The position numbers were made by a program, and so were the translations under genes. Source: Acidobacteriota bacterium (GTDB taxonomy: Bacteria > Acidobacteriota > UBA6911 > RPQK01 > JAJDTT01). From it: DNA of 64,000 bases. Every line of letters begins with the position of its first letter. Position 1 is the first letter of the stretch. The DNA lies in the NCBI GenBank assembly GCA_965263035.1, contig OZ253580.1:4864001-4928000 (forward strand), in the 5' to 3' direction. The notes under the pieces were generated by a model, which had not been told where the DNA came from, searched no databases, and saw only the letters and a list, made by a program, of their open reading frames with translations. This document shows positions 10,311 through 25,517 of the stretch, piece after piece.

Positions 10311-10561
10311 GAGGGGGGACGTTCCTGTCCCCCTCTTCACTGGAGGGGCGACTTTCTTGTCGCCCACTGGGACAGGCGGCTTTCTTGCCGCCTGCTCTTC
10401 TGTCGTTGCTATGCGATTCGGTGGCCGGCAAGTGTAGAGGCCGGCAAGTGTAGAGGGGGGCAAGTGTAGAGGGGGGCAAGTGTAGAGGGGGGACTACCGT
10501 CCCCCCTAACCCCCCCTGGTCGGCGGCCGCTCCCATTCGGCGACAAGAAAGTCGCCGCTCC
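10311..10561. repeat. Cluster of REP-like palindromes between convergent genes
   Basis: GGCGAC-TTTCTT-GTCGCC (10347-10364), GGCGGC-TTTCTT-GCCGCC (10375-10392), inverted copy CGGCGAC-AAGAAA-GTCGCCGCTCC (10538-10561), plus GGGGGAC...GTCCCCC hairpins. Confidence 0.7.
10425..10488. repeat. 16-bp tandem repeat x4
   Basis: (CC/GG)GGCAAGTGTAGAGG at 10425, 10441, 10457 and 10473, with no spacers. Confidence 0.9.
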
Positions 10562-12034: not shown

Positions 12035-14252
12035 TCTTCACCACCTTGAAGTTGTCGAAGAGAATCTCGGGACCGTCGCTCTTGGATGTGGTTCCGACGG
12101 AGTAGCCGTAAATGCCGGCGCTGCCTTCCCGGTTCGGATGCGGGTCCAGCACCTCAATGTTCCAAGCCTCGGGCTCCGGTTCCTCCCTGGGCCAGACCTT
12201 CGCTCGGACCCGTGCCTGTCCATCCTCCAGCGACACCGAGAACTTGGCTCGATACCAGACCTCCGGTTCCCAGGGAAATGCAACGTCGTGCCTCAGGCGC
12301 GGCAGCGGGGACCAGGTCTCGATCCGCAGCCGCTTTCTCATGCCCATCATGACGAATCGGTAGCGGCTGTTGATCAGCCCCATGTCCGGCTTGAAGCGTT
12401 TGCGTGCCAGCTTTCCCAGCAGGTCCGCTTCGACCGTATACCCTCCCGGGACGGGGGGAGTGGCATAGGCTCGAAGCCTCATGAAGGGCGGGGAAGGCCG
12501 CGTCTTGGAGGCCAGCTTCTTGAGCACCTTGCCTCCCGCCTCGATGACTTGCGTCTTGGACGCCACGCCTATCCAGCCGGGAGGCACCGAGCCGACCGCC
12601 AGCGACTCGAAGTCCTCGTGGATCGGCAGATTCGGAGCGATCCGAATCCGAGCAGCGGCGCTCAGACCACTGGGGCTCTTGGCGGTCACGAGACCCGCCG
12701 AGAATGCCTGCTCCTTGCCGGCGTTGAAATTGCCGTCCGCGCCGACTGTTCCCGAGACGCCGCTTGCCGACCACTCGACGCTGGCCGGGGAGGGAGTCGA
12801 TCCCACTGAGTCGAATCGAAGCGCCTTCAGCTGGATCTGCTCTCCGGGTCTCAGCGTCGCTTCCGCCGGCACGACCCGAAGGCTGCCCTTGGACCCCGCT
12901 GCCGGGCGCGCCGTCTCTACTGGAGTCGAGGCTAGCTCTTGCGCCTGTACCTGTTGCCCCGCTTTTCCTAGGCAGTAGATGCCGTAGCGGCTCATGAAAT
13001 AGACGCGTCCGCTGACCACGGCGGGAGAGCCGAAGATCTCGTCCACGGTGCCGTCGGGACGCTCGAACACCTCCTTGTCCAGGGACACGCAACGATCGCC
13101 CTCGTCGCGGAGAATGTGGAAGATGCCGTTCTGTTCTCCCACGTAGATCACGCCGTCGCTGGTCACCACGGGCGACCCCTTGCCCACCCGGCCCAGGTTG
13201 TATTCCCAGTGGATGTCACCGCTGGCGGCGTCCATGCAGTAGAGATTGGCGCTGTTGTCCACGGCATAGAGCCGGCCGTTGGCGATGGCGGGCGAGGCAT
13301 ACCCGAAGGTGTAGCCGTCATGGCGCCAGACCACTCCGCTCTCCGTGATGTCCCCCGTCCGGGTTCCGTCGACGCAGACGATGCCTCCCATCCTGGAGGT
13401 GTGCAGGTTCTCTTCGCTGTGAGAGAGGTACGCTCGGTCTCCGTCCACCACCACGGAAGCGTTGAGACCGCGCTTGCTGAGCCGGAGAGTCCAGGCCTTC
13501 TCACCGTTTCGGGCCCGCATTCCATACGCGTTTCCGTCAGCCGTCGCGGCCACCAACATCCGTTGACCGCCCATGACGGCTGTCGCCGGAACGGCGTAGG
13601 TGGTGTCCAGGGGCGTGCCTCCCGGTGCCGACCACCACTGGATGGCGCCGCTCCCTTTGTGGAATGCCACATATCGATGGAGAGGCCGAGCCTGATTCCC
13701 CCAACTGGAATTGAGAAAGCTCACCACGACCCGGTCCTCGTCCAGGATCGGCGTGTGCAGCCGCCCCCCGTAACCGCTGATGCGGCCCAACTCCTCCGTC
13801 ATGGAGACCTTCCAGACCTCGTCGCCGTCACGGCTGAGACAGAAGAACTCTCCCCCGGTGGCGTGAGCGTAGATCCGGCCCGAATCCGGGTCCCCGACCA
13901 GGGCCGTCCATCCCACCCGGTTCTCCACGATGTCGGTATGGAAGACGTTGAATCGCTTCTCCCACAGCTTGCGGCCGGTCCGGGCGTCGAGCGCCACGAT
14001 CCGTTCCCCCCGCGTCGCCCCTTTCCCCACCGGCAGGATGGCGAAGAGCCGGTCGTCCAGGATGATGGGCGTGGTCCTCCCACCCTCGTCGAACTTCCAG
14101 AGAAGCCCATCCCCACCCTGATCCCAGGAGGTGACGGCGGCTGCTTCCGGGGCGGCGCCGTTCTGGTTCGGGCCGCGCCAGTACGGCCAGTCCGCGCCCA
14201 GGGCCGGTTGGATGGTGATCCAAACCAGGGAAAAGACTCCAAGTATTCTCAA
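12024..14252 (-). CDS. PQQ-binding-like beta-propeller protein with C-terminal Ig-like and lectin-like beta domains
   Basis: ADWPYWRGP N-terminus, ALDARTGRKLW repeats, C-terminal beta-rich extension; TTG start with GGAGG RBS. Confidence 0.85.
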   Translation of the reverse strand: MRILGVFSLVWITIQPALGADWPYWRGPNQNGAAPEAAAVTSWDQGGDGLLWKFDEGGRTTPIILDDRLFAILPVGKGATRGERIVALDARTGRKLWEKRFNVFHTDIVENRVGWTALVGDPDSGRIYAHATGGEFFCLSRDGDEVWKVSMTEELGRISGYGGRLHTPILDEDRVVVSFLNSSWGNQARPLHRYVAFHKGSGAIQWWSAPGGTPLDTTYAVPATAVMGGQRMLVAATADGNAYGMRARNGEKAWTLRLSKRGLNASVVVDGDRAYLSHSEENLHTSRMGGIVCVDGTRTGDITESGVVWRHDGYTFGYASPAIANGRLYAVDNSANLYCMDAASGDIHWEYNLGRVGKGSPVVTSDGVIYVGEQNGIFHILRDEGDRCVSLDKEVFERPDGTVDEIFGSPAVVSGRVYFMSRYGIYCLGKAGQQVQAQELASTPVETARPAAGSKGSLRVVPAEATLRPGEQIQLKALRFDSVGSTPSPASVEWSASGVSGTVGADGNFNAGKEQAFSAGLVTAKSPSGLSAAARIRIAPNLPIHEDFESLAVGSVPPGWIGVASKTQVIEAGGKVLKKLASKTRPSPPFMRLRAYATPPVPGGYTVEADLLGKLARKRFKPDMGLINSRYRFVMMGMRKRLRIETWSPLPRLRHDVAFPWEPEVWYRAKFSVSLEDGQARVRAKVWPREEPEPEAWNIEVLDPHPNREGSAGIYGYSVGTTSKSDGPEILFDNFKVVKNDD

Positions 14253-14809
14253 ACCCGACCTCCTGCGATGAAAAGGTTCACGTGACGCTCATTATCAACG
14301 CAATGCCCACGACGTTTCACATTCTCCCCCTCCCCTGTATGGGTAGCAAGAGAAGAGGGAGCAGAGGGATAAGAGGGATAAGACCCTCTCCTAAGAGAAG
14401 ATTGGCATTTTCCCTCTCCCGCGAAAGCCCGAATATCGTCTTGGGACTGAATCTGCCGCCGAATCTGTCCGCACCGCTGGCGAGTCAGTTTGAAGCGACT
14501 CCCGATCACTGACAGTCTGACACCCTGAGAAGCGAGGCGCCAGATCTTCCTGTCTCGCGGTCTCAGGTCGATGAGCCCGTTCTTGATGCCCGTCTTTTCT
14601 AGTGTCCACCGGCAGTTAGCCCGCATCCGCTGAGTCTCCGGAGTTCGGTCGGTGGGATCCTCATTCCCCACAACATGACGCCGGCAGCCGGCCCGGATGT
14701 TGGTCCACTCAAGGCACGGCTTGCGGTGAACCTTCCACGCCTCCGTGGGTGAAGGTTCAGGCTTCCGGTGGAGTCGGATCTCAAGCAATTCCAACAGCCG
14801 GAAATTCAT
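14249..14809 (-). CDS. Hypothetical protein with sigma70 region 4-like helix-turn-helix
   Basis: LRPRDRKIWRLASQGVRLSVIGSRFKLTRQRCGQIRRQI fits an HTH pattern; ATGA-coupled to the upstream ORF; low-complexity tail crosses the element boundary. Confidence 0.5.
   Translation of the reverse strand: MNFRLLELLEIRLHRKPEPSPTEAWKVHRKPCLEWTNIRAGCRRHVVGNEDPTDRTPETQRMRANCRWTLEKTGIKNGLIDLRPRDRKIWRLASQGVRLSVIGSRFKLTRQRCGQIRRQIQSQDDIRAFAGEGKCQSSLRRGSYPSYPSAPSSLATHTGEGENVKRRGHCVDNERHVNLFIAGGRV
14291..14305 (+). repeat. Candidate att core, left copy
   Basis: ATTATCAACGCAATG vs ATTGTCAACGGAATG at 23605-23619 (13/15 identical); lies at the compositional boundary. Confidence 0.45.
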
Positions 14810-15171
14810 GCGGCCGCCTCAGAGCTTCGGGAGAGACCCGCCGCCTTAGCCGATGTTTTGACTTCTCGCAACCACCACGGCGACGCACGGAAACGGATCG
14901 CGCAGGATCTCCCGTCCGTAGGATCGTTCAGAGCCTCCACATCCACCAGATCCGGGGTGATCCTGGGCTTTTCGTTATCGTCGAAGGGCAAAGGCTCATT
15001 TTGATCCTTTGCCTCGTAAACCCTACCGGATGCTGGATTCTGATCTCGTCGGTCGCTGCCGGGAGTCTCCCAGTCGGTCGCGGGAGCATTCGACCGAGCC
15101 AGTGTGACCAGCTCGGATTTCAGCTCCGCTTTCTGTGCGGCGGTTCGTCGTGTTCTCTTGTGCTTGCCCAT
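14806..15171 (-). CDS. Hypothetical protein, possible C-terminal ribbon-helix-helix
   Basis: Basic N-terminus; AIRFRASPWWLREVKTSAKAAGLSRS resembles an RHH/CopG strand-helix-helix. Confidence 0.4.
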   Translation of the reverse strand: MGKHKRTRRTAAQKAELKSELVTLARSNAPATDWETPGSDRRDQNPASGRVYEAKDQNEPLPFDDNEKPRITPDLVDVEALNDPTDGRSCAIRFRASPWWLREVKTSAKAAGLSRSSEAAA

Positions 15172-15663
15172 TGTCCCGAATCTAGCCGGGACAAGGATAA
15201 ACTACGCGACTGACGTTCGAGAGAAGGGAAAGGCGCGGGGATCAGGAGGGTTGGCTAGATCCGGTTCCGATGGTCCCGCGCCCGTTGTACGAATCAGGAG
15301 AGATCATTCTCCAGAGTGACAGTGCGTCACCCCGAGAGAGTAGCAGAATCGGCTGACCATAAAAAGCCTAAAAGTGTTCTAAAGTCTCCCCGGTGGAAGC
15401 GCCATGGAGGACCGCTCGGAAGCGGAGGAACGCTTAACGGACTCCTCATGACTAGACCATCCGACAGCACCAAACGTCGGTGAGGAAGGGGACGCGAGAG
15501 TTAGGTTTAAGGTGTCCAAGCCGGATCCAACGGGCGCGCCCCCATAGAGCGTCTATTGTATCAGTAAAAACTGTTGCGATCCCATAGCTGAGAAGCGGAT
15601 GGCGTCTAACTCCCTGTACTGCGTTGGAAGGATTGAACGGACGGGAGCATGGCCCGTTTGGGG

Positions 15664-16767
15664 CTAGTCCCGCTCGGCCTCGACAGAGCCCAACAAGCCG
15701 GTGAGGTTTGCTGCCTCTTCCAAGGATTTGCCCGACTGGACAAGTTTCGAAAACGCTGAAGCTCTTCCGATCAAATCCCCAGCCCATTGGTCGAAGTCGA
15801 GGCGGATCTCCGCTTCCAGCTTCACGCTCAGTTCAAGCTGCACCAGCCGAGCAATGGGTTGGATCAGGTTCAAAAATGTACGCCGGAGCCCTTCTCTTTG
15901 GGCAGTACCCGTCGCGGACGGGTCAAAAATGGATGGACTCACCCCGCAAGCGGCCAAGATCGCGGCCTGGGCATCCCGTCTCAATTCCACGAGCGCCGCC
16001 CCTGGGGAAGGGCCAAGCCGAGAAGGTACGAAATCTTTTCGAGGAGCTGCGCTGCGGCCCTCGCCCCAGCCGCCCGACGTCGTTTCAACCAATATCGATC
16101 TGCCGCGCGCGTTTCGGATATCACCGCTCAAGGCAGCCAACGGATCGGCCGCCGGGTCACCATCCGCATTTTCCCCCGAAGCCGAGTCAGGAACCGCGAG
16201 GAGATTCGCAATCGGCCCGGATACTTCGTCGGCGAGACTTCGTTCAACCTCAGAGTTTAGCTTCGAGGATATGGCGGAGAATTTCAGAGGAGAAACACCC
16301 GCATGAGGGCTGCCTGGGTTGGTGCCCCAGGTGACGTGGACCACTCCCTCGTAACCGACCCGCCGGGTTGTCGTCATCGAGGGACCGGCCAGGTCTACGT
16401 CTACGACCCAACTTTTCTGGTCGTAGCTGCCAGTGAACATCCAGGAAGCAACGGGAAACAACCTCACGATGCCCGCCTCCGAAACGTCGATCATGTGCAT
16501 GGATTCGCCCCGGAGAATGAGGGCCCGCCCGATCTGCGCCAGGACTCCCGGAGTCACGGCCGCACGAATGTAGCCTGGACCGCTCACCTTTGCCCCGGCC
16601 AAACTTCGAGCCAACAGGCCCGCCGCCATCTCCGTCGCCGCGGTCGCAGATGATCCCCCGGTCGAGGCTTGGCTCTGGAGCGCCTGGAGCGCGAGCGCCG
16701 TCACGTCGGCCTGTCGCCGCTCCGCCCGCCGCCATGGGATACCAACTTCCCTCCCCTGGAACTTCAC
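15664..16767 (-). CDS. Phage portal protein (HK97/lambda-like)
   Basis: 367 aa; ALILRGES, VVHV, GVSPL, ILAACGVSPSIF and IQPIARLVQLELSVKL match the portal pattern; lies next to head genes. Confidence 0.8.
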   Translation of the reverse strand: MKFQGREVGIPWRRAERRQADVTALALQALQSQASTGGSSATAATEMAAGLLARSLAGAKVSGPGYIRAAVTPGVLAQIGRALILRGESMHMIDVSEAGIVRLFPVASWMFTGSYDQKSWVVDVDLAGPSMTTTRRVGYEGVVHVTWGTNPGSPHAGVSPLKFSAISSKLNSEVERSLADEVSGPIANLLAVPDSASGENADGDPAADPLAALSGDIRNARGRSILVETTSGGWGEGRSAAPRKDFVPSRLGPSPGAALVELRRDAQAAILAACGVSPSIFDPSATGTAQREGLRRTFLNLIQPIARLVQLELSVKLEAEIRLDFDQWAGDLIGRASAFSKLVQSGKSLEEAANLTGLLGSVEAERD

Positions 16768-17075
16768 GCTAGAGACCCCCGACGAACTCGCCAGGAAGAG
16801 AGCAACCCTGCTGCTCCAGAATGCGCTAGGGCGCTGGATTCGCCTTTGAAGCGCGTCTTGCGGATCGTGATGCTGCCGGTTTTGATGTTCAGGTTCGGCG
16901 TCATGTCGGCCAGCCAGCCCGCCGCCCTGATTGCGGCTTCGTTCTGGATGGAGTCCGGAGCGTCCGGCGCATATCGCTCTACCAACTCAGTGACCACCGG
17001 CAACAGGCGAGAAGCGACGGCGGGTTTCCCGTTGATTGCGGCCGCTAATTCGGCTTCATTGAGTGTGACTGCCAT
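16764..17075 (-). CDS. Putative head-tail connector (HK97 gp6 / SPP1 gp15-like)
   Basis: ~103 aa helical protein (RLLPVVTELVERYAP...IQNEAAIRAAGWL...GLLSSWR) between protease and portal; GTGA coupling to the portal gene. Confidence 0.55.
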   Translation of the reverse strand: MAVTLNEAELAAAINGKPAVASRLLPVVTELVERYAPDAPDSIQNEAAIRAAGWLADMTPNLNIKTGSITIRKTRFKGESSALAHSGAAGLLSSWRVRRGSLA

Positions 17076-17115
17076 TCGTTCCCCGCGCTGACTACGGATA
17101 AATTTTCGAAGTGGT

Positions 17116-17598
17116 CTACCAGTAAGGCTTCCATCGAAGTCCCGCCCGTCGCCCCTTCTCCCGGACACTGACGCCGGACCCCGAGTAACTGGGATCGTCT
17201 ACCAAGCCAGCACCGGCCAAAATTGCCTTTTCGATCATTCTCACGTTGCCCTCATAACGCTCACTCTGCGCCCGAAACTCGACACTCAAGCCGGTGTAGA
17301 CGCCAGCCCTGACCATTTCTGCCGCATCGCGGCCGCTGGCAGTATTCAAGAATGGCGCTTCAACGCGGACCTCTTTCCCTTCCACCTTCGGGACGAAGCG
17401 CAAAAGCGCCTGTTTCCGATCGTGCTGAACGTTGAGGATCACCCCGGACTCTGGCCACGACAGCGAATTCTCCAGGAAGATTTCCGCCCGATCGCTCGCC
17501 CGCTCGCCGTACGTCAACAAAACGCCCGCCAGCAAGCCGGGAGATTGCCTTGAGTCGTCTTCCCGAAACTCAACCGCGCAACACCTAATTTCTAGCAT
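17116..17598 (-). CDS. HK97-family prohead protease
   Basis: ILNVQHD (catalytic His), GLSVEF (catalytic Ser), LVDDPSYSGS. Confidence 0.85.
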   Translation of the reverse strand: MLEIRCCAVEFREDDSRQSPGLLAGVLLTYGERASDRAEIFLENSLSWPESGVILNVQHDRKQALLRFVPKVEGKEVRVEAPFLNTASGRDAAEMVRAGVYTGLSVEFRAQSERYEGNVRMIEKAILAGAGLVDDPSYSGSGVSVREKGRRAGLRWKPYW

Positions 17599-17608
17599 TT
17601 CCTACCTA

Positions 17609-17899
17609 CTACGACGGCGTTAGAATTAAGGTGGCCGCGCCCGAATCGACCCGGATCCAAACCGTCTCATTTCCAACTTCAAGAATTCGAGTCGGGACCG
17701 CAGTTCCGCGAGCCGTCGGCCTCCAGGGGTGCCCGGTGACCGTCGGTTCTACCAGGTCGTCGGTTCGTGCCGTGAATACGGTAGCCAGCGGCGATAGGCC
17801 ACGAATGTCCATGGTCCACACGTCGCCCGCTTCAAATCCCGCCGCCAGGGTCAGGTTCAGCCAGCTTGTCGTCAGGTCGATTTGTTGCGTCCAGGCCAT
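17609..17899 (-). CDS. Small beta-rich hypothetical protein, possible virion decoration protein
   Basis: 96 aa, Thr/Val/Trp-rich; TAATG coupling within the head operon. Confidence 0.5.
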   Translation of the reverse strand: MAWTQQIDLTTSWLNLTLAAGFEAGDVWTMDIRGLSPLATVFTARTDDLVEPTVTGHPWRPTARGTAVPTRILEVGNETVWIRVDSGAATLILTPS

Positions 17900-18357
17900 T
17901 ACCTATTCCTGTTGATGCGTTCGTACCATCTACCGATCGCCCGCCCGCATTCTGGATCAAGGATGCCCGAGCTCGCCGACTTCAGCCGCTCGACAACCGT
18001 TGCCTCGCCGGGATCGAGGACGATCTCCTTCGCACCCGGCCCGAGCATTTCCAACAGCCGCCGCCGTCTCGCCGGTGATCCGTCTGAGTTGGTGGCCACG
18101 ATATCGAAACCCATTTCCCGGCCTCGCCGGATTACGTCCTGCCTCAAACGCTCAGTTATCGGCAACAGGGAGAGATCCGCACCGCGCCGGATCGGGAATC
18201 GGCCTGTAGTCGGGTCGCGCCTGGTCCCGGTGATCGAATTAAAGACAGAAGTGAAATCCGCGAGGATCGCGTTCCGACCAGTCGTTCCGAGAGTCGCCAA
18301 GGCAAGTTTGCTCTTCCCGGTCCCGGCTGGCCCTGAGATCAATACGCTACCAGGCAT
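17899..18357 (-). CDS. Small P-loop NTPase/kinase (AAA_33-like)
   Basis: Walker A VLISGPAGTGKS at the N-terminus, 152 aa, GGAGG RBS. Confidence 0.7.
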   Translation of the reverse strand: MPGSVLISGPAGTGKSKLALATLGTTGRNAILADFTSVFNSITGTRRDPTTGRFPIRRGADLSLLPITERLRQDVIRRGREMGFDIVATNSDGSPARRRRLLEMLGPGAKEIVLDPGEATVVERLKSASSGILDPECGRAIGRWYERINRNR

Positions 18358-18383
18358 TTTACGCCAGTGCCTCCGCTCACCCG

Positions 18384-19580
18384 CTAAGAGTGCTGAACCT
18401 GGACGCGCTTCCAGCCGTCAGTCTCGATGACTTTGAACGCGACCAGCAAAATCGCAGTCAAGGAGATGATTCCTGTGGCCTTGCCCGAAATTTCGTCTAC
18501 CAAAAGCTGTATACCCTGCCACACGGGAGCAACCGCGTCCTGCCTGCCGCTGCCGAGACGGACGATGCAATCCTGCTTAGGATTGCTCCCGGTTGTCGCT
18601 GCCGGGACATGCGCCGAGATCCTGACGCCCGCCGTGATGTCCCGGAGACGTTCGATCGCGTTTCTCTCGCCGCTACTCGTGTTTCGATACAAGCTGGCCA
18701 TGCTGACCAAAGTCTCGTTCCCGATCAGAACCCGGAGTTCCGATTCGGAGGAAACCCGCCTGCCCGTAACCAGCCCGTAAGCAAGTCGAGAGAGATACGT
18801 GGTGTGAGTTGCGACCGCTGACGACGATGTGCGGGAAACGTCCGAGACGATCTGAGCAACCATCCGAGAATCGAGCCGTTCCGACAATCCACTCGAAAGC
18901 GCGAGCCTCAAGGCTTGATCCATGTTTGGGAATTTCGCCAAATCTGTCCTGCGGAATGAGAACGCGGCAGAAATTCGACCAGGTTCCAAAAGTTCCGCGC
19001 TGAACGCGCCGTCGGTCTCGGCATGACTTGTCGACGTGGTACTCGGCCCGTGGACCGTCGGCCTTGTCGTCAACACCGGAAAAGACGCCGCCCCCGCCTC
19101 GACCCTGGGAGAAAAAATTCCCATCCAAGCGGAATCTCCGAGAGCGAAAGCCGGTTGCAAGATCGGTGCCTGAGAAGCCGCCGCCGGAGTGTGAGATGTG
19201 GACGCCGGGACAGTCGCCACGGCCCGCTGTTCCAGCATCTCCAGCGGGATCATGTCAGCCGGGAGCTTGAAGTGATCCTGGATCTCCTTCTCCGCTCCGG
19301 AGCTGCTTGAACGCCGCTCGATTACCGCCTGGAAGATGTTTCCGACGTTCGCCCGATCCGACAGCCGCGCCAAAGCGGAATTCTCTCCGCCGTCACTCGG
19401 CTGGATGTCGCCCTCGGCCTTGATCGCGGCCCGGAGCTGGATCTCAGTATTGCCGAGATCCGTTTCGGCCTTCGTGATCGTTTCCTTGTCTTCCGCAGTG
19501 ATCGTTTCCTTGCGAGAAAGATCGAGCAACTTCGAGCGAATTTCCGACGCCCGAATGGTGAGCTTCTGTGCTTGAGTCAA
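18384..19580 (-). CDS. Phage major capsid protein (HK97 fold with N-terminal coiled-coil scaffold)
   Basis: TTG start with GGAGG RBS; helical N-terminus; LEPGRISAAFSFRRTDL...DQALRLALSSGLSERLD resembles the HK97 spine helix; ~398 aa; clustered with protease and portal. Confidence 0.75.
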   Translation of the reverse strand: MTQAQKLTIRASEIRSKLLDLSRKETITAEDKETITKAETDLGNTEIQLRAAIKAEGDIQPSDGGENSALARLSDRANVGNIFQAVIERRSSSSGAEKEIQDHFKLPADMIPLEMLEQRAVATVPASTSHTPAAASQAPILQPAFALGDSAWMGIFSPRVEAGAASFPVLTTRPTVHGPSTTSTSHAETDGAFSAELLEPGRISAAFSFRRTDLAKFPNMDQALRLALSSGLSERLDSRMVAQIVSDVSRTSSSAVATHTTYLSRLAYGLVTGRRVSSESELRVLIGNETLVSMASLYRNTSSGERNAIERLRDITAGVRISAHVPAATTGSNPKQDCIVRLGSGRQDAVAPVWQGIQLLVDEISGKATGIISLTAILLVAFKVIETDGWKRVQVQHS

Positions 19581-19630
19581 CGTGCTGTCCTCCGGTTGAT
19601 TGATCGGTTCCAGGTCGATTTTAGCACAGT

Positions 19631-19646
19631 TGGCACGGGAATTGCT
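19631..19646 (+). promoter_or_regulatory. Sigma54 -24/-12 motif pointing antisense into HNH/terL
   Basis: TGGCACGGGAATTGCT matches the consensus TGGCACG-N4-TTGCW exactly. Confidence 0.55.
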
Positions 19647-19651
19647 CATAG

Positions 19652-19667
19652 AGCAATCATAGTGCCA
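19652..19667 (-). promoter_or_regulatory. Sigma54 -24/-12 promoter of the capsid operon
   Basis: Minus strand TGGCACTATGATTGCT (GG-N10-GC), ~70 bp upstream of the capsid start. Confidence 0.6.
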
Positions 19668-19671
19668 AATC

Positions 19672-20046
19672 TCAGTCCACCTTCCTCAAATATCGGTTGG
19701 AGGCTGTTTCAGTCTCGACCAGGTGATCGACCAGCCGGCTCCACCGCTTCTCAGCAGCCGTCAACGGCCTGGAATTCTCACGTGCCGTCTTGCGGATGTG
19801 GCAATCCCGGCAGAGCGTTTGCAGGTTGTCCGTATGCTCCCGCCCGCCCTGAGAAAGCGGGATTATGTGATCCACTTCCAGGCGGCCCGCCTTGCCGCAG
19901 TCGATGTTCTGGCAACGGAAGTTGTCTCGATGTAGCACCCGCATCCGAAGCACCCGCCACGCCCGTTGAGAGATCGTGTGCCGCTTCGCCCGCTTCGCCC
20001 GCTTCGCCAGTGGAGAGCCCGGCGTACCGCCCCAATTCGCCATCAT
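19672..20046 (-). CDS. HNH endonuclease (HK97 gp74-like terminase cofactor)
   Basis: RDNFRCQNIDCG...LEVDHIIPLSQGG...NLQTLCRDCHIRKT; ATGA-coupled to terL. Confidence 0.9.
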   Translation of the reverse strand: MMANWGGTPGSPLAKRAKRAKRHTISQRAWRVLRMRVLHRDNFRCQNIDCGKAGRLEVDHIIPLSQGGREHTDNLQTLCRDCHIRKTARENSRPLTAAEKRWSRLVDHLVETETASNRYLRKVD

Positions 20047-21467
20047 GCCAATGCCGTCCTCAATCGGCGGGGCGCCGCGTTCTTCTCGGACCTATGGAAC
20101 ACCCCCGCCACAAGCACCAGGGAAGCCGCCACGTCGTCTCTTCCTCGGTTGGAGCTATCCTTCTTCACCAACCGGACGGACCCTTGGTCGTCCGACTTGA
20201 CCCGAGCCGCGGCGAGCGAAGCCTCGAACAGGGAGTGAGAGCTTTTAGGGCATGACAATGGGCCATCCCTCACAATGCGCCGTAGAGAGTCAATGTCCTC
20301 CGTGGCCTCCGACCACCTGGCAACCCGTGGGACAATCGGAATCCCAGGACCGATAGCATCCTTCAGTGCCTTCAACCGGAACCTGTCACAGACGACAGAC
20401 GCCGGACGCCCCCAGCGCCTCATGACAGCTTGATGTAGATGATGCGGTTCGGGGTCACGCTTTCCAGGTACGGTGACAAGCTGGCCGCCATCCTCGAGGA
20501 GCTGGTAAAGGCCCGCAGGGACATTATCCCGCTGTTCCTGCTTGCGGAGGCTGGGGATACCCGGTGCCACCGCTATGCACTCTGTACGCCCATTCCTCCA
20601 CATCCCGCAGGCCGCGTCCCATGCTCTTCCCCCTCCGATATCAATCGAAACGATCGGGCGACCTACTCGGGGAGGGACCGGTCGGGCCTTCACCATCTCC
20701 CACTCCTCGACCGTGATTAAAGTGACCTCCTCGTCCATGGTCGGGAGGTTCATGCGGTAGCTGAGGAACCGCGACTTCAAGCGGGAGTCCCGCAAAGCCG
20801 CGTCCCTTTCCTCGATCAACTTCGCCAGGAACCGACCCGATATCCGAGTCAGGGGATTGACCCGCTTGATCTCCTCTATGTCGTCCCACAGCTTGCGCTT
20901 CCCCTGGAGCGTCATGACGTAGGTGCTCCCGTGGGAGCCACCGGCCACCATGTCCGGCCACCAGCCTGTCGTAGTGGGAGCCAGAGTTCCGATCAAGATC
21001 AATCGAAGTGGTGAGCCCGGCTTCCCCATTGCCGTCGAAAGGGAGTCGTATAACAACTGACCATTATTCACCTGCCAAGCTCCAGGTTCGTCCCCTACCA
21101 CCAGCGGCACATTGACCAGTCCAAACGACCCCTTCGCGTTGGAGCTCAACACCCGCACCCGCGTGTTCGATTCCACGTGGCGGATGCCGATCCTGTTGAA
21201 GGAATCCAGGAACCTGTAACCGCCCAGCGGTTCCAGATCGGCCCGGACGAAGTTGTAGACGATCCTCGCCTGTTCGAGGCTTGCCGCCGTCAGAACAACC
21301 TCTTTCCCGGGATGGAAAAGGGAGTCGCCCGGAATCATCGCCCGCTTCACCAGGTGAGCCCCGAGGAAAGATTTCCCATTGCCACGAGGGGCACTGAGAC
21401 AGGCCAGGTCAATCCCGTCGGCCGTCGCCCGCTCGATGAACTTCCGCTGAAACGGTTCAAGCCTCAT
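20043..21467 (-). CDS. Phage terminase large subunit
   Basis: LEPFQ adenine-binding motif, Walker A PRGNGKS, Walker B VVGDE, LILIGT, nuclease-domain SIDIG and RDD. Confidence 0.88.
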   Translation of the reverse strand: MRLEPFQRKFIERATADGIDLACLSAPRGNGKSFLGAHLVKRAMIPGDSLFHPGKEVVLTAASLEQARIVYNFVRADLEPLGGYRFLDSFNRIGIRHVESNTRVRVLSSNAKGSFGLVNVPLVVGDEPGAWQVNNGQLLYDSLSTAMGKPGSPLRLILIGTLAPTTTGWWPDMVAGGSHGSTYVMTLQGKRKLWDDIEEIKRVNPLTRISGRFLAKLIEERDAALRDSRLKSRFLSYRMNLPTMDEEVTLITVEEWEMVKARPVPPRVGRPIVSIDIGGGRAWDAACGMWRNGRTECIAVAPGIPSLRKQEQRDNVPAGLYQLLEDGGQLVTVPGKRDPEPHHLHQAVMRRWGRPASVVCDRFRLKALKDAIGPGIPIVPRVARWSEATEDIDSLRRIVRDGPLSCPKSSHSLFEASLAAARVKSDDQGSVRLVKKDSSNRGRDDVAASLVLVAGVFHRSEKNAAPRRLRTALA

Positions 21468-21567
21468 TTTGACCCCCGGAGGCCCTTTTCCATGCACGCT
21501 CTAGCCCACCCCACGGATCTGGGCCCCTCCCCCCGGATCGGCGGTGCCATATGCCCGCGCCCCGGCC

Positions 21568-21825
21568 CTACTCAGCAACACGCCAGCGGGCCTGCGCCCG
21601 CTGCTCGGTTCGAACGTCCTCAGCAATCATGGCGTCAGCAATCTCAAAGCAAACCGCCGCAAGCGCAGGGATTCGCGCTTGGAGATCCGCTTCCGGTTGT
21701 TCATGCCCAGTAGTCCAATTCGAGGACGCCAATGCCTGCCCCGCGTACCACTGCCGCAGGTTCATGTTCTTCATGGGCATTCTCGCCCGGTACAACATTT
21801 TTTCATTCAGTTCCTTGTCAGTCAT
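21568..21825 (-). CDS. Phage hypothetical protein (MTLRDYFA...ADAM family)
   Basis: MNLRQWYAGQAL...CFEIADAMIAE matches a common small phage protein pattern; GGAGGG RBS. Confidence 0.7.
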   Translation of the reverse strand: MTDKELNEKMLYRARMPMKNMNLRQWYAGQALASSNWTTGHEQPEADLQARIPALAAVCFEIADAMIAEDVRTEQRAQARWRVAE

Positions 21826-22019
21826 GATTCCCTCCATTCGTTCCCACTCTGCCAAGTGCACACATAAACACAGTGCACAGAGGATCCCCTATGACTACTG
21901 CAATCCGTTACACTTCTCCGTCCATATATAGAGCGCTCTGAGCACTCCCAGCAGAGCGGCTCGTCAGTGGCACCATGTCTCCGCCTTTCCATGTGATATC
22001 GTTTCTCACTCATCATCAT
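21822..22019 (-). CDS. Small Cys-rich hypothetical protein
   Basis: AAGGAGGA RBS; CWEC and CVYVC; ATGA overlap with the next gene. Confidence 0.5.
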   Translation of the reverse strand: MMMSEKRYHMERRRHGATDEPLCWECSERSIYGRRSVTDCSSHRGSSVHCVYVCTWQSGNEWRES

Positions 22020-22038
22020 TCCTCCTTGTAAGTTCAAC

Positions 22039-22347
22039 TTAGATTGCTCGTTCCTTCCACAGGATCTGCACAGGGACTCGACCCCGACCGATGACGCTCC
22101 GGTAGTCTCCGGCCAGCACGTCGGCGGCTGGCTTAAGGCACCATTTATGAGCTGCCCCAATATGCCCCCACCCCTCCGCGATGAACCTCGTTCCCCGATG
22201 CGGAAGGCGAAGCACCCGCACACAGTCGAAGTCCGGAGCCGAGAGCCCCGACAGAGTGAACAGCTCGAAGTCGAATACGACTCGGTGCGGTTCGCTCCGC
22301 TGTCGATAGATGGCGAATACCATGCTCTGTTCCTCCAAGTGATTCAC
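22039..22347 (-). CDS. Hypothetical protein
   Basis: GTGA overlap with the recombinase stop; 102 aa. Confidence 0.5.
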   Translation of the reverse strand: MNHLEEQSMVFAIYRQRSEPHRVVFDFELFTLSGLSAPDFDCVRVLRLPHRGTRFIAEGWGHIGAAHKWCLKPAADVLAGDYRSVIGRGRVPVQILWKERAI

Positions 22348-23522
22348 CCTTGCCCATTCTGAGATTCGTGTAGCCGAGAGACAGCCCCGCGTCGAGCATC
22401 AGTTGTCTCTGTGTACCGCAGCACGGTCGCAGTACTCTTCCACCGGCCAGCCCGCGCGACTTCCTGGATTGGCTCGCGGTTTTCGGTGAGGGTCTGCGCC
22501 ATGCCACGCCGGAAAGAGTGACCGCCATACCGTCCCTTGAGCCCGCATTGCTCACACCTGTTCTTGGTGATGTCCCGGATCGTGCGAGGATGCATCCCTG
22601 TATCGGATGGTCGCCCCGAGTGAAACACCTTACGGAACAGCGGTCCCGGACCGATCCGGGAGCTCTCAGTCCAGACCCGCACCTTCATCATGGCTGGCGG
22701 GCTGATAAACAGGGTAGCTCCCTCGCCGTTCTGGTCTGTCTTGGAGCGTCGAATAGTGAGCAGCCCGGACCCGTCGTCTTGGTCTTCCAGGTCCGACACT
22801 TCAAGCGCGGCCAACTCGCCGACCCGCAACAATCCGTCGAATAGCAAGCTGAAGATCGCCGCATCCCGGATGCCCCGGAGCCCGTACTCCCCTTCACAGT
22901 GAGCCACCAGTTTCGCCACGTCCGCCGCCCTCAGTTCCTTCACAGACCCCTTCGCCCGGGACGCTCCTTCCCGTCTGATGCGCTTCATGACCGCCCTACT
23001 CAGCACCCCGTAGGGATCAGGGTCGCCCATGGCCTTGGCCCGGAACACCAAGACCCGAACATCAAGACCGATCGTTCCCGGCGACACGGGAGGATCGGTT
23101 TGCTCGAAGCGATCTTCCAGGTATCGGGAAAGGATGGCGTCCGTGATCTCGGAAGAGCCGGAGCAGTTCACCAAGTGCTTGTCGATGCGGTTGATGATGC
23201 CCAGGTATTGGGTCCGCGTAGACAGCGCCAGACTCGCCAGCGCGACGTCCAGCTTGTCACCAGCGGTCAGCTCGGCCGCCGGCGTGGTCCACCGCTCCGA
23301 AGTCTCCGTGCTGGGCAGACCAGCTTCCGCCCGGTACTCCTCGTAATCGTTCAGAGCTTGCTGCTTCATGCAGAGCAGGGAGTGCATCCTGTAGTCGATC
23401 AGAGCCTGAAACTCCTCGATGGCTTGATCGATTTTCTCGATGTGAGTTTCCATCCGTGCTACTTCGTCGTGCGGGAGAATCTGGATATTGAATTTCACCG
23501 GCTCCCGCTTCTTCTCTGCCAT
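22344..23522 (-). CDS. Tyrosine recombinase/integrase, Cre-like clade
   Basis: RDAAI...LLRVGEL (R), RRSKTDQ (K), GHSFRRG (HxxR), GRWKS (W), VLRY (Y); AGGAG RBS before ATG 23522. Confidence 0.92.
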   Translation of the reverse strand: MAEKKREPVKFNIQILPHDEVARMETHIEKIDQAIEEFQALIDYRMHSLLCMKQQALNDYEEYRAEAGLPSTETSERWTTPAAELTAGDKLDVALASLALSTRTQYLGIINRIDKHLVNCSGSSEITDAILSRYLEDRFEQTDPPVSPGTIGLDVRVLVFRAKAMGDPDPYGVLSRAVMKRIRREGASRAKGSVKELRAADVAKLVAHCEGEYGLRGIRDAAIFSLLFDGLLRVGELAALEVSDLEDQDDGSGLLTIRRSKTDQNGEGATLFISPPAMMKVRVWTESSRIGPGPLFRKVFHSGRPSDTGMHPRTIRDITKNRCEQCGLKGRYGGHSFRRGMAQTLTENREPIQEVARAGRWKSTATVLRYTETTDARRGAVSRLHESQNGQG

Positions 23523-23583
23523 TTCGTTCTCCTGGTTGGGTTGGTGATGATCGGTCACCAGGAGAGCTTACCAGAGTTGGGGG

Positions 23584-23612
23584 ATAATGGGTAGTGTCCC
23601 GTCTATTGTCAA
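23584..23612 (-). promoter_or_regulatory. Putative sigma70 promoter of the recombinase operon
   Basis: Minus strand TTGACA-N17-CATTAT; the -35 box lies inside the right att-like repeat. Confidence 0.5.
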
Positions 23613-23619
23613 CGGAATG
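23605..23619 (+). repeat. Candidate att core, right copy
   Basis: ATTGTCAACGGAATG, ~80 bp from the recombinase start. Confidence 0.45.
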
Positions 23620-23663
23620 GACGGTGTCTTCAAAACTCATATAGGCCGGTAGACGGTAAGCCG

Positions 23664-25517
23664 TCACCGGGCGACCAGGGGCAGGGTGACATGTGACGGC
23701 CGGCTCCGGTCATGGAACACGGTGTTGCGGGCGATGGTCCAACTCCGTTCCCGGCCCAGCGGCTCCCCGGTGTTGGGATTGACGTCGAACCGCGGGAAGT
23801 TGCTGGAGGAGACGTCCAGGCGAATCCGGTGTCCCTTTTGGAAGCGGTTGGCCGTGGGGTAGAGGACGATGGTGATGGACGCCACCTCTCCCGGCTCCAA
23901 GAGCCGTGCCGTGCCGCCGCTCTCGCGGTAGCGGACCCTGAGAATGCTGTCGCTCAGGTTCAGCGCGTAGCCTAGGGGATAGTCCGGGCCGGGGGGATAG
24001 ACGTCGATGAGCTTGGCGGTGAAGTCGGTGTCCCGTGCGGAGGAGGCGACCCAGAGCTTGACCTCCATGGGCCCTGCGATTTCCAGATCCTGTTCCAGCG
24101 GCGGCGTCTCGAACACCAGGACGTCGGGACGGGAGCCCAGGGGCAGATAGGGCGGCGTGCATCCGAAGAAGTCCGGACCCTCGGTCTGGTCAAACCCCCC
24201 GGACGGAGTCACGGCCTCGATCATGGTCGGTGTGGGGACCGATTCCGGCCGAACTCCCTGGGGCCAGGGCCGAACGTAGCTCAGGGAGGAGAAGTTCCCT
24301 CCGATGGTGGGGACCGGACGCCGCGGATCGTAGCGATAGCTGGTGGAGGATTCCTTCCGGTCGGAGGGGCGGGGCGACAGGGTCCGGTCCGGATGCAGGT
24401 AATAGGGCGTGGGCGCCGCCTGCGACAGCGGCCAGCCGTCTCCCTCGCGCCAATGCCCGCCGTGGTCCAGATTCCCCAAGCGGGTCCTGCGCCCGCTGCC
24501 GCCGCCCATGAGGAACCATCGGATGGCCGGCATGCGGGCCGCGTCCGTCTCCCGGCCCTTGAGCCACTGGTCGAACCAGTCCAGATGGAGGCGGTCCAGA
24601 CTCGCCAGTGGCGCTTCCGGTCCCAGGTCCGCGTCTCCGGACAGTTGTTCCTCGGTCGTGTAGGTGCCGTGCACCCAGGGACCCATGACGACCTTCACCG
24701 GCCCCGTCTTGGCACTCCTCAGAGCCTGGAAAGCCTCCAGCGTGGCGCGGGTGTAGGAGTCGTACCAGCCTCCGATCAGGAGAATGGGGACATCCGAGTG
24801 CTGCTCCAGGAACTCCTCGATGGCGAATCCGGGTTGTTTCCAGTACTCGTCGTAATCCCCGTGCCGGACCAGCTCCAGGGCCCAGCGCTCGTAACCGGGA
24901 AGTAACGAGAGCTGGCTCTGTCCCCTTCGCAGCGGCAGCCGCCGGAGCCAATGCCGAAAATCGGGACCCGACGACAGCCCCTCCTGCAACCAGGGGAGAG
25001 CGTTGGTTTCGGCGTTCCCGTGATTGACGGAGTGCCAGAAGGCCCAAGCCAGAAAACGGAGCTCGTAGGCCCCACCCTGGCGGACCGAGCTGGTATAGGC
25101 GTTCCAGCCGCCCATGACGGGGATCATGCAGGCGAGATGAGGAGGGTTCTGCGTGGCCAGGGTGCTCTGGGTCCAGGCCACGTAGGAGGTGCCGTAGGTC
25201 CCCACCTTCCCGTCGCACCACTCCTGCCGGGCCGTCCACTCCACGGCGTCGTAACCGTCGAAGGGTTCGTTGACCAGAAAGACCAGATCTCCCTCGGAGG
25301 AATGGCAGCCCCGGCAGTCCTGGACAACCACCGCATAGCCATGCTCGGCGTAGCGCTCGGCCCGCCGCATCCGCTCCAGTTCCTGCTTGCCGTAGGGAGT
25401 CCGTTCCAGGAGGGCAGGGAAGGGCCCCGAGGCGTCGGCGGGCCGGTAGACGTCGGTTCCCAGGCGGACTCCGTCCCGCATCGTGACCATGACGTTTCGA
25501 TCGATCCTCAGGGCCAT
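23664..25517 (-). CDS. CocE/NonD family hydrolase
   Basis: VMVTMRDGVRLGTDVYRP, RTPY, GTSY nucleophile, GGWYD, GPWVH, RIRLDVSSSNFPRFDVNPNTG. Confidence 0.92.
   Translation of the reverse strand: MALRIDRNVMVTMRDGVRLGTDVYRPADASGPFPALLERTPYGKQELERMRRAERYAEHGYAVVVQDCRGCHSSEGDLVFLVNEPFDGYDAVEWTARQEWCDGKVGTYGTSYVAWTQSTLATQNPPHLACMIPVMGGWNAYTSSVRQGGAYELRFLAWAFWHSVNHGNAETNALPWLQEGLSSGPDFRHWLRRLPLRRGQSQLSLLPGYERWALELVRHGDYDEYWKQPGFAIEEFLEQHSDVPILLIGGWYDSYTRATLEAFQALRSAKTGPVKVVMGPWVHGTYTTEEQLSGDADLGPEAPLASLDRLHLDWFDQWLKGRETDAARMPAIRWFLMGGGSGRRTRLGNLDHGGHWREGDGWPLSQAAPTPYYLHPDRTLSPRPSDRKESSTSYRYDPRRPVPTIGGNFSSLSYVRPWPQGVRPESVPTPTMIEAVTPSGGFDQTEGPDFFGCTPPYLPLGSRPDVLVFETPPLEQDLEIAGPMEVKLWVASSARDTDFTAKLIDVYPPGPDYPLGYALNLSDSILRVRYRESGGTARLLEPGEVASITIVLYPTANRFQKGHRIRLDVSSSNFPRFDVNPNTGEPLGRERSWTIARNTVFHDRSRPSHVTLPLVAR

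Follow-up and report, generated by a model that had tools for sequence, protein, structure and literature searches.

A 9.3-kb integrative element of an acidobacterium encodes a phage-type head and packaging system and probably belongs to a widespread family of minimal, tail-less capsid-forming phage satellites

The 64,000-nt stretch of an Acidobacteriota genome analysed here (contig OZ253580.1, positions 4,864,001 to 4,928,000; hereafter the window) harbors a discrete integrative element, E1, which occupies window positions 14301-23614 (9,314 bp) and has all its genes on the minus strand. E1 carries a complete head-and-packaging gene set together with a head-to-tail adaptor gene, and it looks intact and probably belongs to a widespread family, apparently undescribed so far, of minimal integrative phage satellites that form capsids but have no tails. 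Its nature as a mobile element is close to certain, and we infer that the family depends on helper phages. The single-strand head and packaging cassette lies almost exactly where an original prediction, made from the DNA letters alone, had placed it. That prediction had also proposed a distinct capsid-encoding, tail-less and integrase-bearing family, a proposal now borne out by a gene order that recurs at four sites of this genome, in other genera and in a 9,410-bp circle.

The ends and genes of E1 are as follows (window coordinates; values after family names are E-values; ORF, open reading frame; aa, amino acids).

23605..23619, minus strand: right attachment (att) repeat, minus-strand sequence CATTCCGTTGACAAT; host junction between 23614 and 23615
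22344..23558, minus strand: tyrosine recombinase (integrase), 404 aa; PF00589 1.8e-15, phrog_1 1.6e-21
22039..22347, minus strand: 102-aa ORF, picked by codon-position GC; its start overlaps the integrase stop by 4 nt
21568..21861, minus strand: 97-aa ORF upstream of TerL, picked by codon-position GC; weak match to phrog_2201, 0.0023
20043..21497, minus strand: large terminase TerL; phrog_9 1.2e-33, no Pfam match
19672..20046, minus strand: HNH endonuclease; PF01844 1.3e-13, phrog_589 1.9e-22; overlaps the TerL stop by 4 nt
18384..19649, minus strand: major capsid protein (MCP), 421 aa; HK97 fold from the predicted model
17899..18357, minus strand: P-loop NTPase, AAA_33/kinase-like, 152 aa; weak AAA matches in Pfam
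17609..17899, minus strand: 96-aa ORF; no assignable family, no homologue in other elements
17116..17598, minus strand: S78 prohead serine protease, HK97 type; PF04586 6.4e-5, phrog_80 8.6e-12
16764..17075, minus strand: probable gp6-like head-to-tail adaptor, 103 aa; structure match, start set by family alignment
15664..16767, minus strand: portal, 367 aa; PF04860 6.2e-7, under the Pfam cut-off
15172..15663, no strand: 492-nt non-coding gap; no convincing ORF, no Rfam match
14806..15171, minus strand: 121-aa ORF; no family match
14249..14809, minus strand: 186-aa ORF that extends past the left att repeat into the host sequence; no family match
14291..14305, minus strand: left att repeat, minus-strand sequence CATTGCGTTGATAAT; junction between 14300 and 14301

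The capsid protein of E1 has no Pfam or PHROG match, and its identity comes from structure. An AlphaFold model computed from 11 family members (predicted local distance difference test score, pLDDT, 66) gave 298 Foldseek matches in PDB at E<=1e-3; those displayed are HK97-fold capsids and encapsulins, in agreement with the originally proposed capsid gene. A further 243 matches at the same threshold were found in BFVD, where the named rows are HK97-family MCPs, and the E2 paralogue of the protein (see below) matches PF05065 at 1.9e-9. The helical N-terminal ~130-140 aa of the model are read as a putative fused scaffold (delta-like) domain. For the gene originally called a connector, the function was upheld and the start was not, as alignment of relatives moved it to M32 (from ORF 16764-17168 to 16764-17075). 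The top VIA-align match of the adaptor model (pLDDT 67.5) is HK97 gp6 (3jvo_A; Z 7.1, root-mean-square deviation 3.9 over 82 residues), the next 12 rows hold neck or connector proteins from phages, RcGTA and SaPI1 as well as B. subtilis YqbG, and the protein resembles the Atlas PF05135 cluster with a score of 0.95. Foldseek on the same model returned nothing at E<=1e-3, so we hold the gp6-like assignment with moderate confidence. In HK97-like phages gp6 sits on the portal, in the neck linking head and tail. PDB-sequence profile searches with adaptor, P-loop and capsid alignments yielded nothing significant.

For the remaining core genes, the protease scores 3.8e-6 against TIGR01543, under the cut-off, the portals of paralogues and relatives pass the PF04860 cut-off (6.8e-11 to 3.3e-13), and TerL likely starts at M11, which yields the 474-aa form found in the protein collection. 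The best NCBIfam models for the recombinase are of XerA/XerC type, under their cut-offs, so its description as Cre-type holds in the broad sense alone. Stop/start overlaps at five places (integrase/102-aa ORF, TerL/HNH, P-loop/96-aa ORF, adaptor/portal, 121-/186-aa ORFs) are in line with the predicted translational coupling. Small ORFs do fill 21568-22347 after the integrase gene, where three had been expected, and codon-position GC marks two of them, of 102 and 97 aa, as likely real; the former has no NCBIfam, PADLOC or PHROGs match and the latter occupies the position where TerS would be. Pfam, PHROG, NCBIfam and PADLOC scans assigned no family to the 96-, 97-, 102-, 121- and 186-aa ORFs. 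By eye, the C-terminus of the 121-aa protein appears ribbon-helix-helix (RHH)-like and the 186-aa product is a putative helix-turn-helix protein; the latter has one homologue, 54% identical, on a contig 438,913 long, and the closest TerL relative (77%) lies on an equally long contig. The 492-nt gap, which contains an 18-nt inverted repeat (15270-15287 / 15528-15545), is possibly a regulatory or packaging (cos) region. As had been noted from the letters, E1 contains no match to tail, lysis, replication (primase/helicase), AlpA or TerS models in Pfam, PHROG and NCBIfam.

The boundaries of E1 follow from its empty sites. A left-flank search showed that the left flank up to 14300 joins 23615 onward directly in 8/8 other genomes of the genus, which fixes the extent of the element at 14301-23614. 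The terminal direct repeat is 15 nt long and imperfect, with 13/15 positions identical; a repeat search at >=12 nt detected no att repeat for E1, and a 10-mer pair at ~15555 and 23605, picked by eye as a candidate end repeat, was discarded since the empty sites fixed the ends otherwise. E1 occupies the short spacer between genes for an S15 peptidase and a PQQ-like beta-propeller protein, confirming the predicted insertion between co-oriented host genes, and no tRNA is present in the window. The element entered as one unit, via site-specific recombination at a short core between these two genes.

Sequencing reads add a view of strain variation. In a source-like run, a single contig covers 10533-24029 and joins the element to both flanks, at a depth of 81.8 for E1 vs 82-86 for the flanks (85.9 for the right-flank contig). 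In runs X5 and X8, which come from two other studies, the left-flank contigs show 11-12 differences from the window over 3,193 letters. Their flank depth is 33-43 and 113-126, E1 pieces reach only 0.5-35 by bin, and the left-flank unitigs of both runs stop exactly at 14300; E1 is therefore polymorphic among near-identical strains and mostly absent. A 451-nt contig from the X5/X8 data matches 24035 down to 23605 and has 20 letters more; by our arithmetic, an empty-site unitig built from 31-letter words would come out at this size.

E1 is not alone in its host. Searching the 6.2-Mb genome with E1 proteins (tblastn) revealed three further bounded copies of 9.2-10.5 kb, E2-E4, each with an integrase nearby and a TerL 45-48% identical to that of E1. 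E1-E4 occupy four unrelated genomic sites.

E2, 362268-372804: 10.5 kb; 11-nt exact repeat at its ends
E3, about 5098867-5108052: 9.19 kb; TerL inverted; 16/20 repeat
E4, 5348771-5358660: 9,890 bp; 6-7-nt core

The orthologous sites of E2 and E4 are uninterrupted in 7/7 congeners examined, with the fragmentary G008 left out. Since the sites of E1, E2 and E4 are all empty in the congeners examined, three or more units of 9.3-10.5 kb entered this genome independently. The GC content of the family copies ranges from 0.54 to 0.66 vs 0.62 for the genome. E3 carries the head closure protein Hc1/PF05521, to which the 96-aa product of E1 shows no likeness. E3 and E4 interrupt one sodium:solute symporter gene each, at different protein positions. 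The genome has >20 sodium:solute symporter paralogues, and an extra portal fragment lies just downstream of another of them, at 2068764-2071380.

Three additional copies, E5-E7, are decayed by stop codons, insertion sequence (IS) insertions and fragmentation, and scattered portal fragments also occur. This decay would suit a reading of E1 as an ordinary tailed temperate prophage that has lost its tail, lysis and replication modules by deletion, and one relative discussed below, G389a, adjoins fragments of tail genes. We regard this origin for E1 as very unlikely. Every E1 ORF is open, the compact unit is also found as a 9,410-bp circle, and the contig sizes of TerL homologues cluster at unit size. 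The congeneric sites of E1, E2 and E4 are empty and the junctions fall at short repeats, which argues that the 9.3-10.5 kb units arrived as such. As a side observation, the genome contains 16 copies of an IS that encodes a DDE_Tnp_1_4 transposase, four of which adjoin decayed family elements or portal scrap (22690-24462, 1790.8-1792.7k, 5145349-5147125 and 5229262-5231036), a proximity far exceeding the genome share that family elements occupy.

The paralogues also inform the P-loop protein and the TerS question. The P-loop protein is kept in E2, E4, E7 and the relatives G001b and G007, and its look-alikes in the Atlas are AAA_33 clusters (score 0.95, 190 shared features). Positions 124-256 of phrog_4581, a family labelled small terminase, match the E4 P-loop copy (L019:9782-10207) and positions 47-118 match HNH proteins; the elements encode the two proteins separately, on either side of the capsid gene. 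A part in packaging is possible for the P-loop protein. In E3, E6, G003 and G004 the region upstream of TerL holds a conserved small gene, a TerS candidate with no family match, and its profile revealed no likeness to the 97-aa and 186-aa ORFs of E1.

Beyond this genome, a TerL protein search covering 41 relatives found a match in six genomes, the host included. Across 401 genomes of the phylum, with three candidates scored per genome, the TerL profile matched seven at E<=1e-30, and the capsid profile matched five of 137 class genomes, all within this genus. The order TerL-HNH-MCP-(NTPase)-protease-adaptor-portal plus integrase is shared, also in other genera of the phylum. The module is complete in G003 and G007, occurs at two loci in G001, one of them rearranged, is rearranged and accompanied by a transposase-like gene in G004, partial in G348 and decayed in G357. 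G389 has it twice, with an excisionase after the portal followed by a cargo slot before the integrase; the excisionase is limited to the G389 and G357 copies. The genes in this slot are cargo of a kind typical of satellites. The cargo of the first copy, G389a, is a SIR2-like defence-type gene (L136:13622-14890; PADLOC 1e-14), and that of the second is a DNA methyltransferase (L137:14109-15821; phrog_67 2.5e-62).

This distribution speaks to the idea of a domesticated head module resembling gene transfer agents (GTAs), kept for gene transfer or another host function, which had been raised at the outset and did not hold up. RcGTA-type GTAs share with E1 a small HK97-type head with adaptor and the absence of replication genes, and the RcGTA adaptor is among the structural matches of the E1 protein. 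GTAs carry tail genes, have no integrase and occupy a fixed, vertically inherited locus. E1 differs from RcGTA in carrying an integrase and att repeats of its own, and the orthologous site lacks it in 8/8 congeners. The family is multi-copy with divergent TerL paralogues and variable GC content, its insertions disrupt host genes, and its spread is patchy (7/401 phylum-sample genomes; 5/137 class genomes, the five in one genus). A GTA-like role is accordingly extremely unlikely in our judgment.

The defence-type cargo of G389a also brings up the view that the head genes serve primarily as an anti-phage device, for instance one that competes for, or sequesters, the tails or packaging factors of a phage, and that transfer comes second. 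Satellites often interfere with their helpers, according to the accessible parts of the literature, which likewise state that the prototype capsid-forming phage-inducible chromosomal island (cf-PICI) does not block its own. PADLOC gave no convincing match among the accessory genes scanned from E1-E4, and a full packaging set (TerL, HNH, portal) together with unit-size contigs suggests self-encapsidation, so a mainly anti-phage element seems highly improbable.

In metagenomes the family is abundant. In a collection of 5.8 billion proteins there are at least 2,016 TerL homologues at E<=1e-20, the best 119 being 56-77% identical. The longest contigs of 21 of these 119 measure 8.5-11 kb (8.4 per kb vs 3.2 in the next bin), with tight clusters at 8,729-8,776, 8,913-8,970 and 10,284-10,353 bp. 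The capsid profile retrieved 1,611 clusters at 50% identity (E<=1e-30). The ends of the IMG/VR contig L036 repeat each other exactly over 99 bp, which shows it to be a 9,410-bp circle; it carries the matching gene set, no integrase match, and an RHH protein two genes upstream of TerL (PF01402 7.5e-5). A second IMG/VR contig, L035 (7,280 bp), keeps the order and has a weak gp10-like match (Pfam 0.0012). Among 50,697 deposited phage records there is no close relative: TerL matched five records with <=33% identity over <=38% of its length, and the portal matched none. A single-TerL scan of genome contigs recovered six distant TerLs alone, in Clostridia-type records, Akkermansia and Pseudoramibacter, and the scan of metagenome contigs gave one close partial match and ten distant ones. 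A literature search, supplements aside, returned no description of this family, a result that does not show the family to be unpublished.

We scanned 18 loci for tail genes with Pfam and/or PHROGs, namely E1-E7, nine loci elsewhere and the two IMG/VR contigs, covering at most loci the non-core ORFs within ~5-8 kb. Homologues are not confined to full prophages: tail-related matches lie near 1/18 loci, G389a, outside its integrase, and the compact organisation recurs in further genera, the IMG/VR circle and unit-size metagenomic contigs. Among the ORFs scanned from E1-E4, L035 and L036, no tail, lysis or replication match falls within any bounded element. The G389a matches (L138:1496-9916) comprise fragments of a major-tail protein (72 aa) and a tape-measure protein (113 aa) plus a weak match of 899 aa, and several large unknown ORFs lie beside them. 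Upstream of the G389a TerL are a second HK97 capsid gene (L136:7233-8537; TIGR01554 above cut-off) and a CI-like repressor. We read these surroundings as a nesting or tandem insertion with a siphophage; they may hold a helper or ancestor phage remnant and are our best lead to either.

The seven copies or remnants in one genome, with no detectable tail gene, raise the question of whether tails are needed at all. If the family were an autonomous tail-less vehicle, DNA-filled heads would spread without a helper tail, escape when the host dies or through a lysis function that goes unrecognised, and enter a new cell via the portal-adaptor vertex or fibers attached there. Several small ORFs without family leave room for such functions. 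In L036 a 766-aa product (L036:3263-5563) fuses the adaptor domain to ~650 residues with Ala-rich coiled-coil-like stretches, fiber-like by eye and weakly matching the head-fiber chain 7qof_l (E 0.026), and this extension may be a fiber attached at the portal vertex. We nonetheless think an autonomous vehicle unlikely: gp6-like adaptors, the Hc1 of E3 and the weak gp10-like match of L035 correspond to head-tail joint parts in known phages, no lysis or entry function is recognisable, and we know of no terminase-and-portal-packaged bacterial virus that infects without a tail. The more specific proposal that the 9-10.5 kb elements are widespread "head-only" duplodnaviral replicons, spreading as tail-less portal-bearing capsids and in some cases with a fiber-fused adaptor, we rate as slightly more doubtful still. 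Were it true, no helper tail would be needed, the many copies without a detectable tail gene would make sense, and the family would be the smallest terminase/portal system known to encapsidate itself and would deliver DNA in a new way.

Under the favored satellite reading, the gene content suggests the following life cycle. When a helper phage infects the cell or is induced, the recombinase would excise E1 as a ~9.3 kb circle, and helper or host functions would multiply it, a role we assign to them because no replication gene is recognisable in E1. Capsid protein carrying its own scaffold would build a small HK97-type head, and TerL and HNH, with a putative TerS-like DNA-binding protein, would cut the DNA in cos fashion and package it into these small procapsids. 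The S78 protease would mature the capsids and the adaptor would cap them, after which the heads would join helper-made tails and be released by helper lysis genes. In a new cell, the recombinase would insert the element at a short core site. The pairing of HNH with TerL is typical of HK97-like cos packaging. HK97 itself has a T=7 head and a genome of 39.7 kb; scaled from it by volume, a T=3 head would hold ~11 kb and a T=4 head ~17 kb, so by this estimate of ours the 9.2-10.5 kb units would suit T=3 heads or sit loosely in T=4 heads. The available portion of the cf-PICI preprint likewise ties HNH and TerL to HK97-like cos packaging.

Several points weigh against the satellite reading. Particle formation, tail joining and transfer by E1 are predictions, and no TerS, second neck protein or replication function was recognised in the element. 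Depth in the source-like run gave no sign of excised or amplified E1 copies. The host genome has no match to PF10145, PF04984, PF04865 or phrog_158, so no helper was found; its two marginal matches to phrog_1533 involve a profile that also matches 10/14 control genomes, and its single PF05065 match is the E7 capsid gene. The evidence on the metagenomic homologues covers protein sequences and contig sizes. Finally, the tail fragments and second HK97 capsid gene at G389a make a siphophage origin or nesting possible.

Among known systems, HK97-like phages share with E1 an HK97-fold capsid protein whose N-terminal part resembles a scaffold domain, an S78 protease, a portal, a gp6-like adaptor and an HNH-assisted TerL. 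The HK97 order is TerS-TerL-portal-protease-MCP-adaptor, unlike the TerL-HNH-MCP-protease-adaptor-portal of E1, which is a quarter the size of these phages and has no tail, lysis, replication or immunity modules. Bounded at 14301-23614 and with no contiguous tail, lysis or replication modules, E1 is not a complete prophage.

The nearest system by function is the cf-PICI (prototype EcCIEDL933, 15.4 kb). As far as the accessible preprint text goes, both are integrative islands with capsid, protease, portal, head-tail joint protein(s), HNH and TerL, and without tail or holin genes. The preprint gives the head order of Proteobacteria cf-PICIs as capsid-protease-portal-connectors followed by hnh-terS-terL, in the portion consulted; the reversed head order originally noted is thus present in E1 but shared with these islands and not distinguishing. 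What sets the E1 family apart, judged against that portion, is the position of TerL-HNH, upstream of the capsid gene in E1 and downstream of the head genes in cf-PICIs, its small size (9.2-10.5 kb vs ~15 kb) and its missing modules. In addition, E1 has an extra AAA_33-like P-loop gene inside the head operon and a capsid protein too distant for Pfam/PHROG models. Unlike cf-PICIs it has no AlpA/MerR-type regulator, primase-replicase or TerS recognised by Pfam, PHROG or NCBIfam, so we call the family cf-PICI-like in function and not in membership; a functional analogue of the regulator may exist among the small ORFs. The SatelliteFinder cf-PICI model, in its available description, lists 11 core components, needs >=9 and forbids tails and holins. 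E1 has seven of the 11 (integrase, capsid, protease, portal, adaptor, HNH and TerL) and no tail or holin genes inside, so the model would not accept it. Its host phylum is not among the satellite phyla named in the accessible part of a survey (Proteobacteria, Firmicutes, some Actinobacteria).

Other small systems resemble E1 in part. The Streptomyces satellite viruses MulchRoom and MiniFlayer, compared by description only and from partial text, have encapsidation genes and miss key replication genes, as E1 does, but they have their own tail structures (a "unique tail adaptation") and E1 has none. "Twilight-zone" mini HK97 viral genomes, according to the excerpted source (PMC13669383), are <11.6 kb, the size of the smallest isolated tailed phages, have an HK97-fold capsid and often an integrase. 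At 9.3 kb E1 falls within this size range but carries TerL, portal and adaptor, which the E1 family has and the dominant encapsulin-like "twilight-zone" genomes, as described there, do not (terminase, portal, connector; PMC13669383). Two further candidates were set aside: EPIP satellites, with a serine integrase and a tape measure and no TerL or portal listed, and haloarchaeal SRCE satellites, a different system by the description available.

Capsid-forming satellites are described, in the consulted portion of the literature, from Proteobacteria and Firmicutes as ~15-kb islands with a regulator and primase-replicase. The E1 family would be far more reduced: beyond its recombinase, packaging motor, head and head-tail adaptor, nothing is recognisable. 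It is smaller than the 11.6 kb given for the smallest isolated tailed phages in the accessible text (PMC13669383), and it is abundant in metagenomes by its TerL homologues and capsid clusters. If helper dependence were confirmed, satellites would reach an under-studied phylum, a satellite could outsource replication besides tails and lysis, and the family would offer a natural minimal system for the lower size limit of a terminase-packaged HK97 capsid. Its insertions also inactivate host genes, two of them symporter genes of this genome (E3, E4).

Some minor features lie at the E1 borders. A promoter-like site upstream of the integrase gene (23584-23612: TTGACA, 17 nt, CATTAT) has its -35-like hexamer inside the att repeat, and integration or excision of E1 would alter the sequence upstream of this site. 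Promoter-like and terminator-like sites at E1 are not above their frequency in shuffles, and 13500-24500 has no Rfam match. Outside the element, summed contig depth rises 10- to 30-fold with many joints at window 10342-10560 and about twofold at 23.8-24.4 kb, which suggests multi-copy repeats or conserved paralogous stretches.

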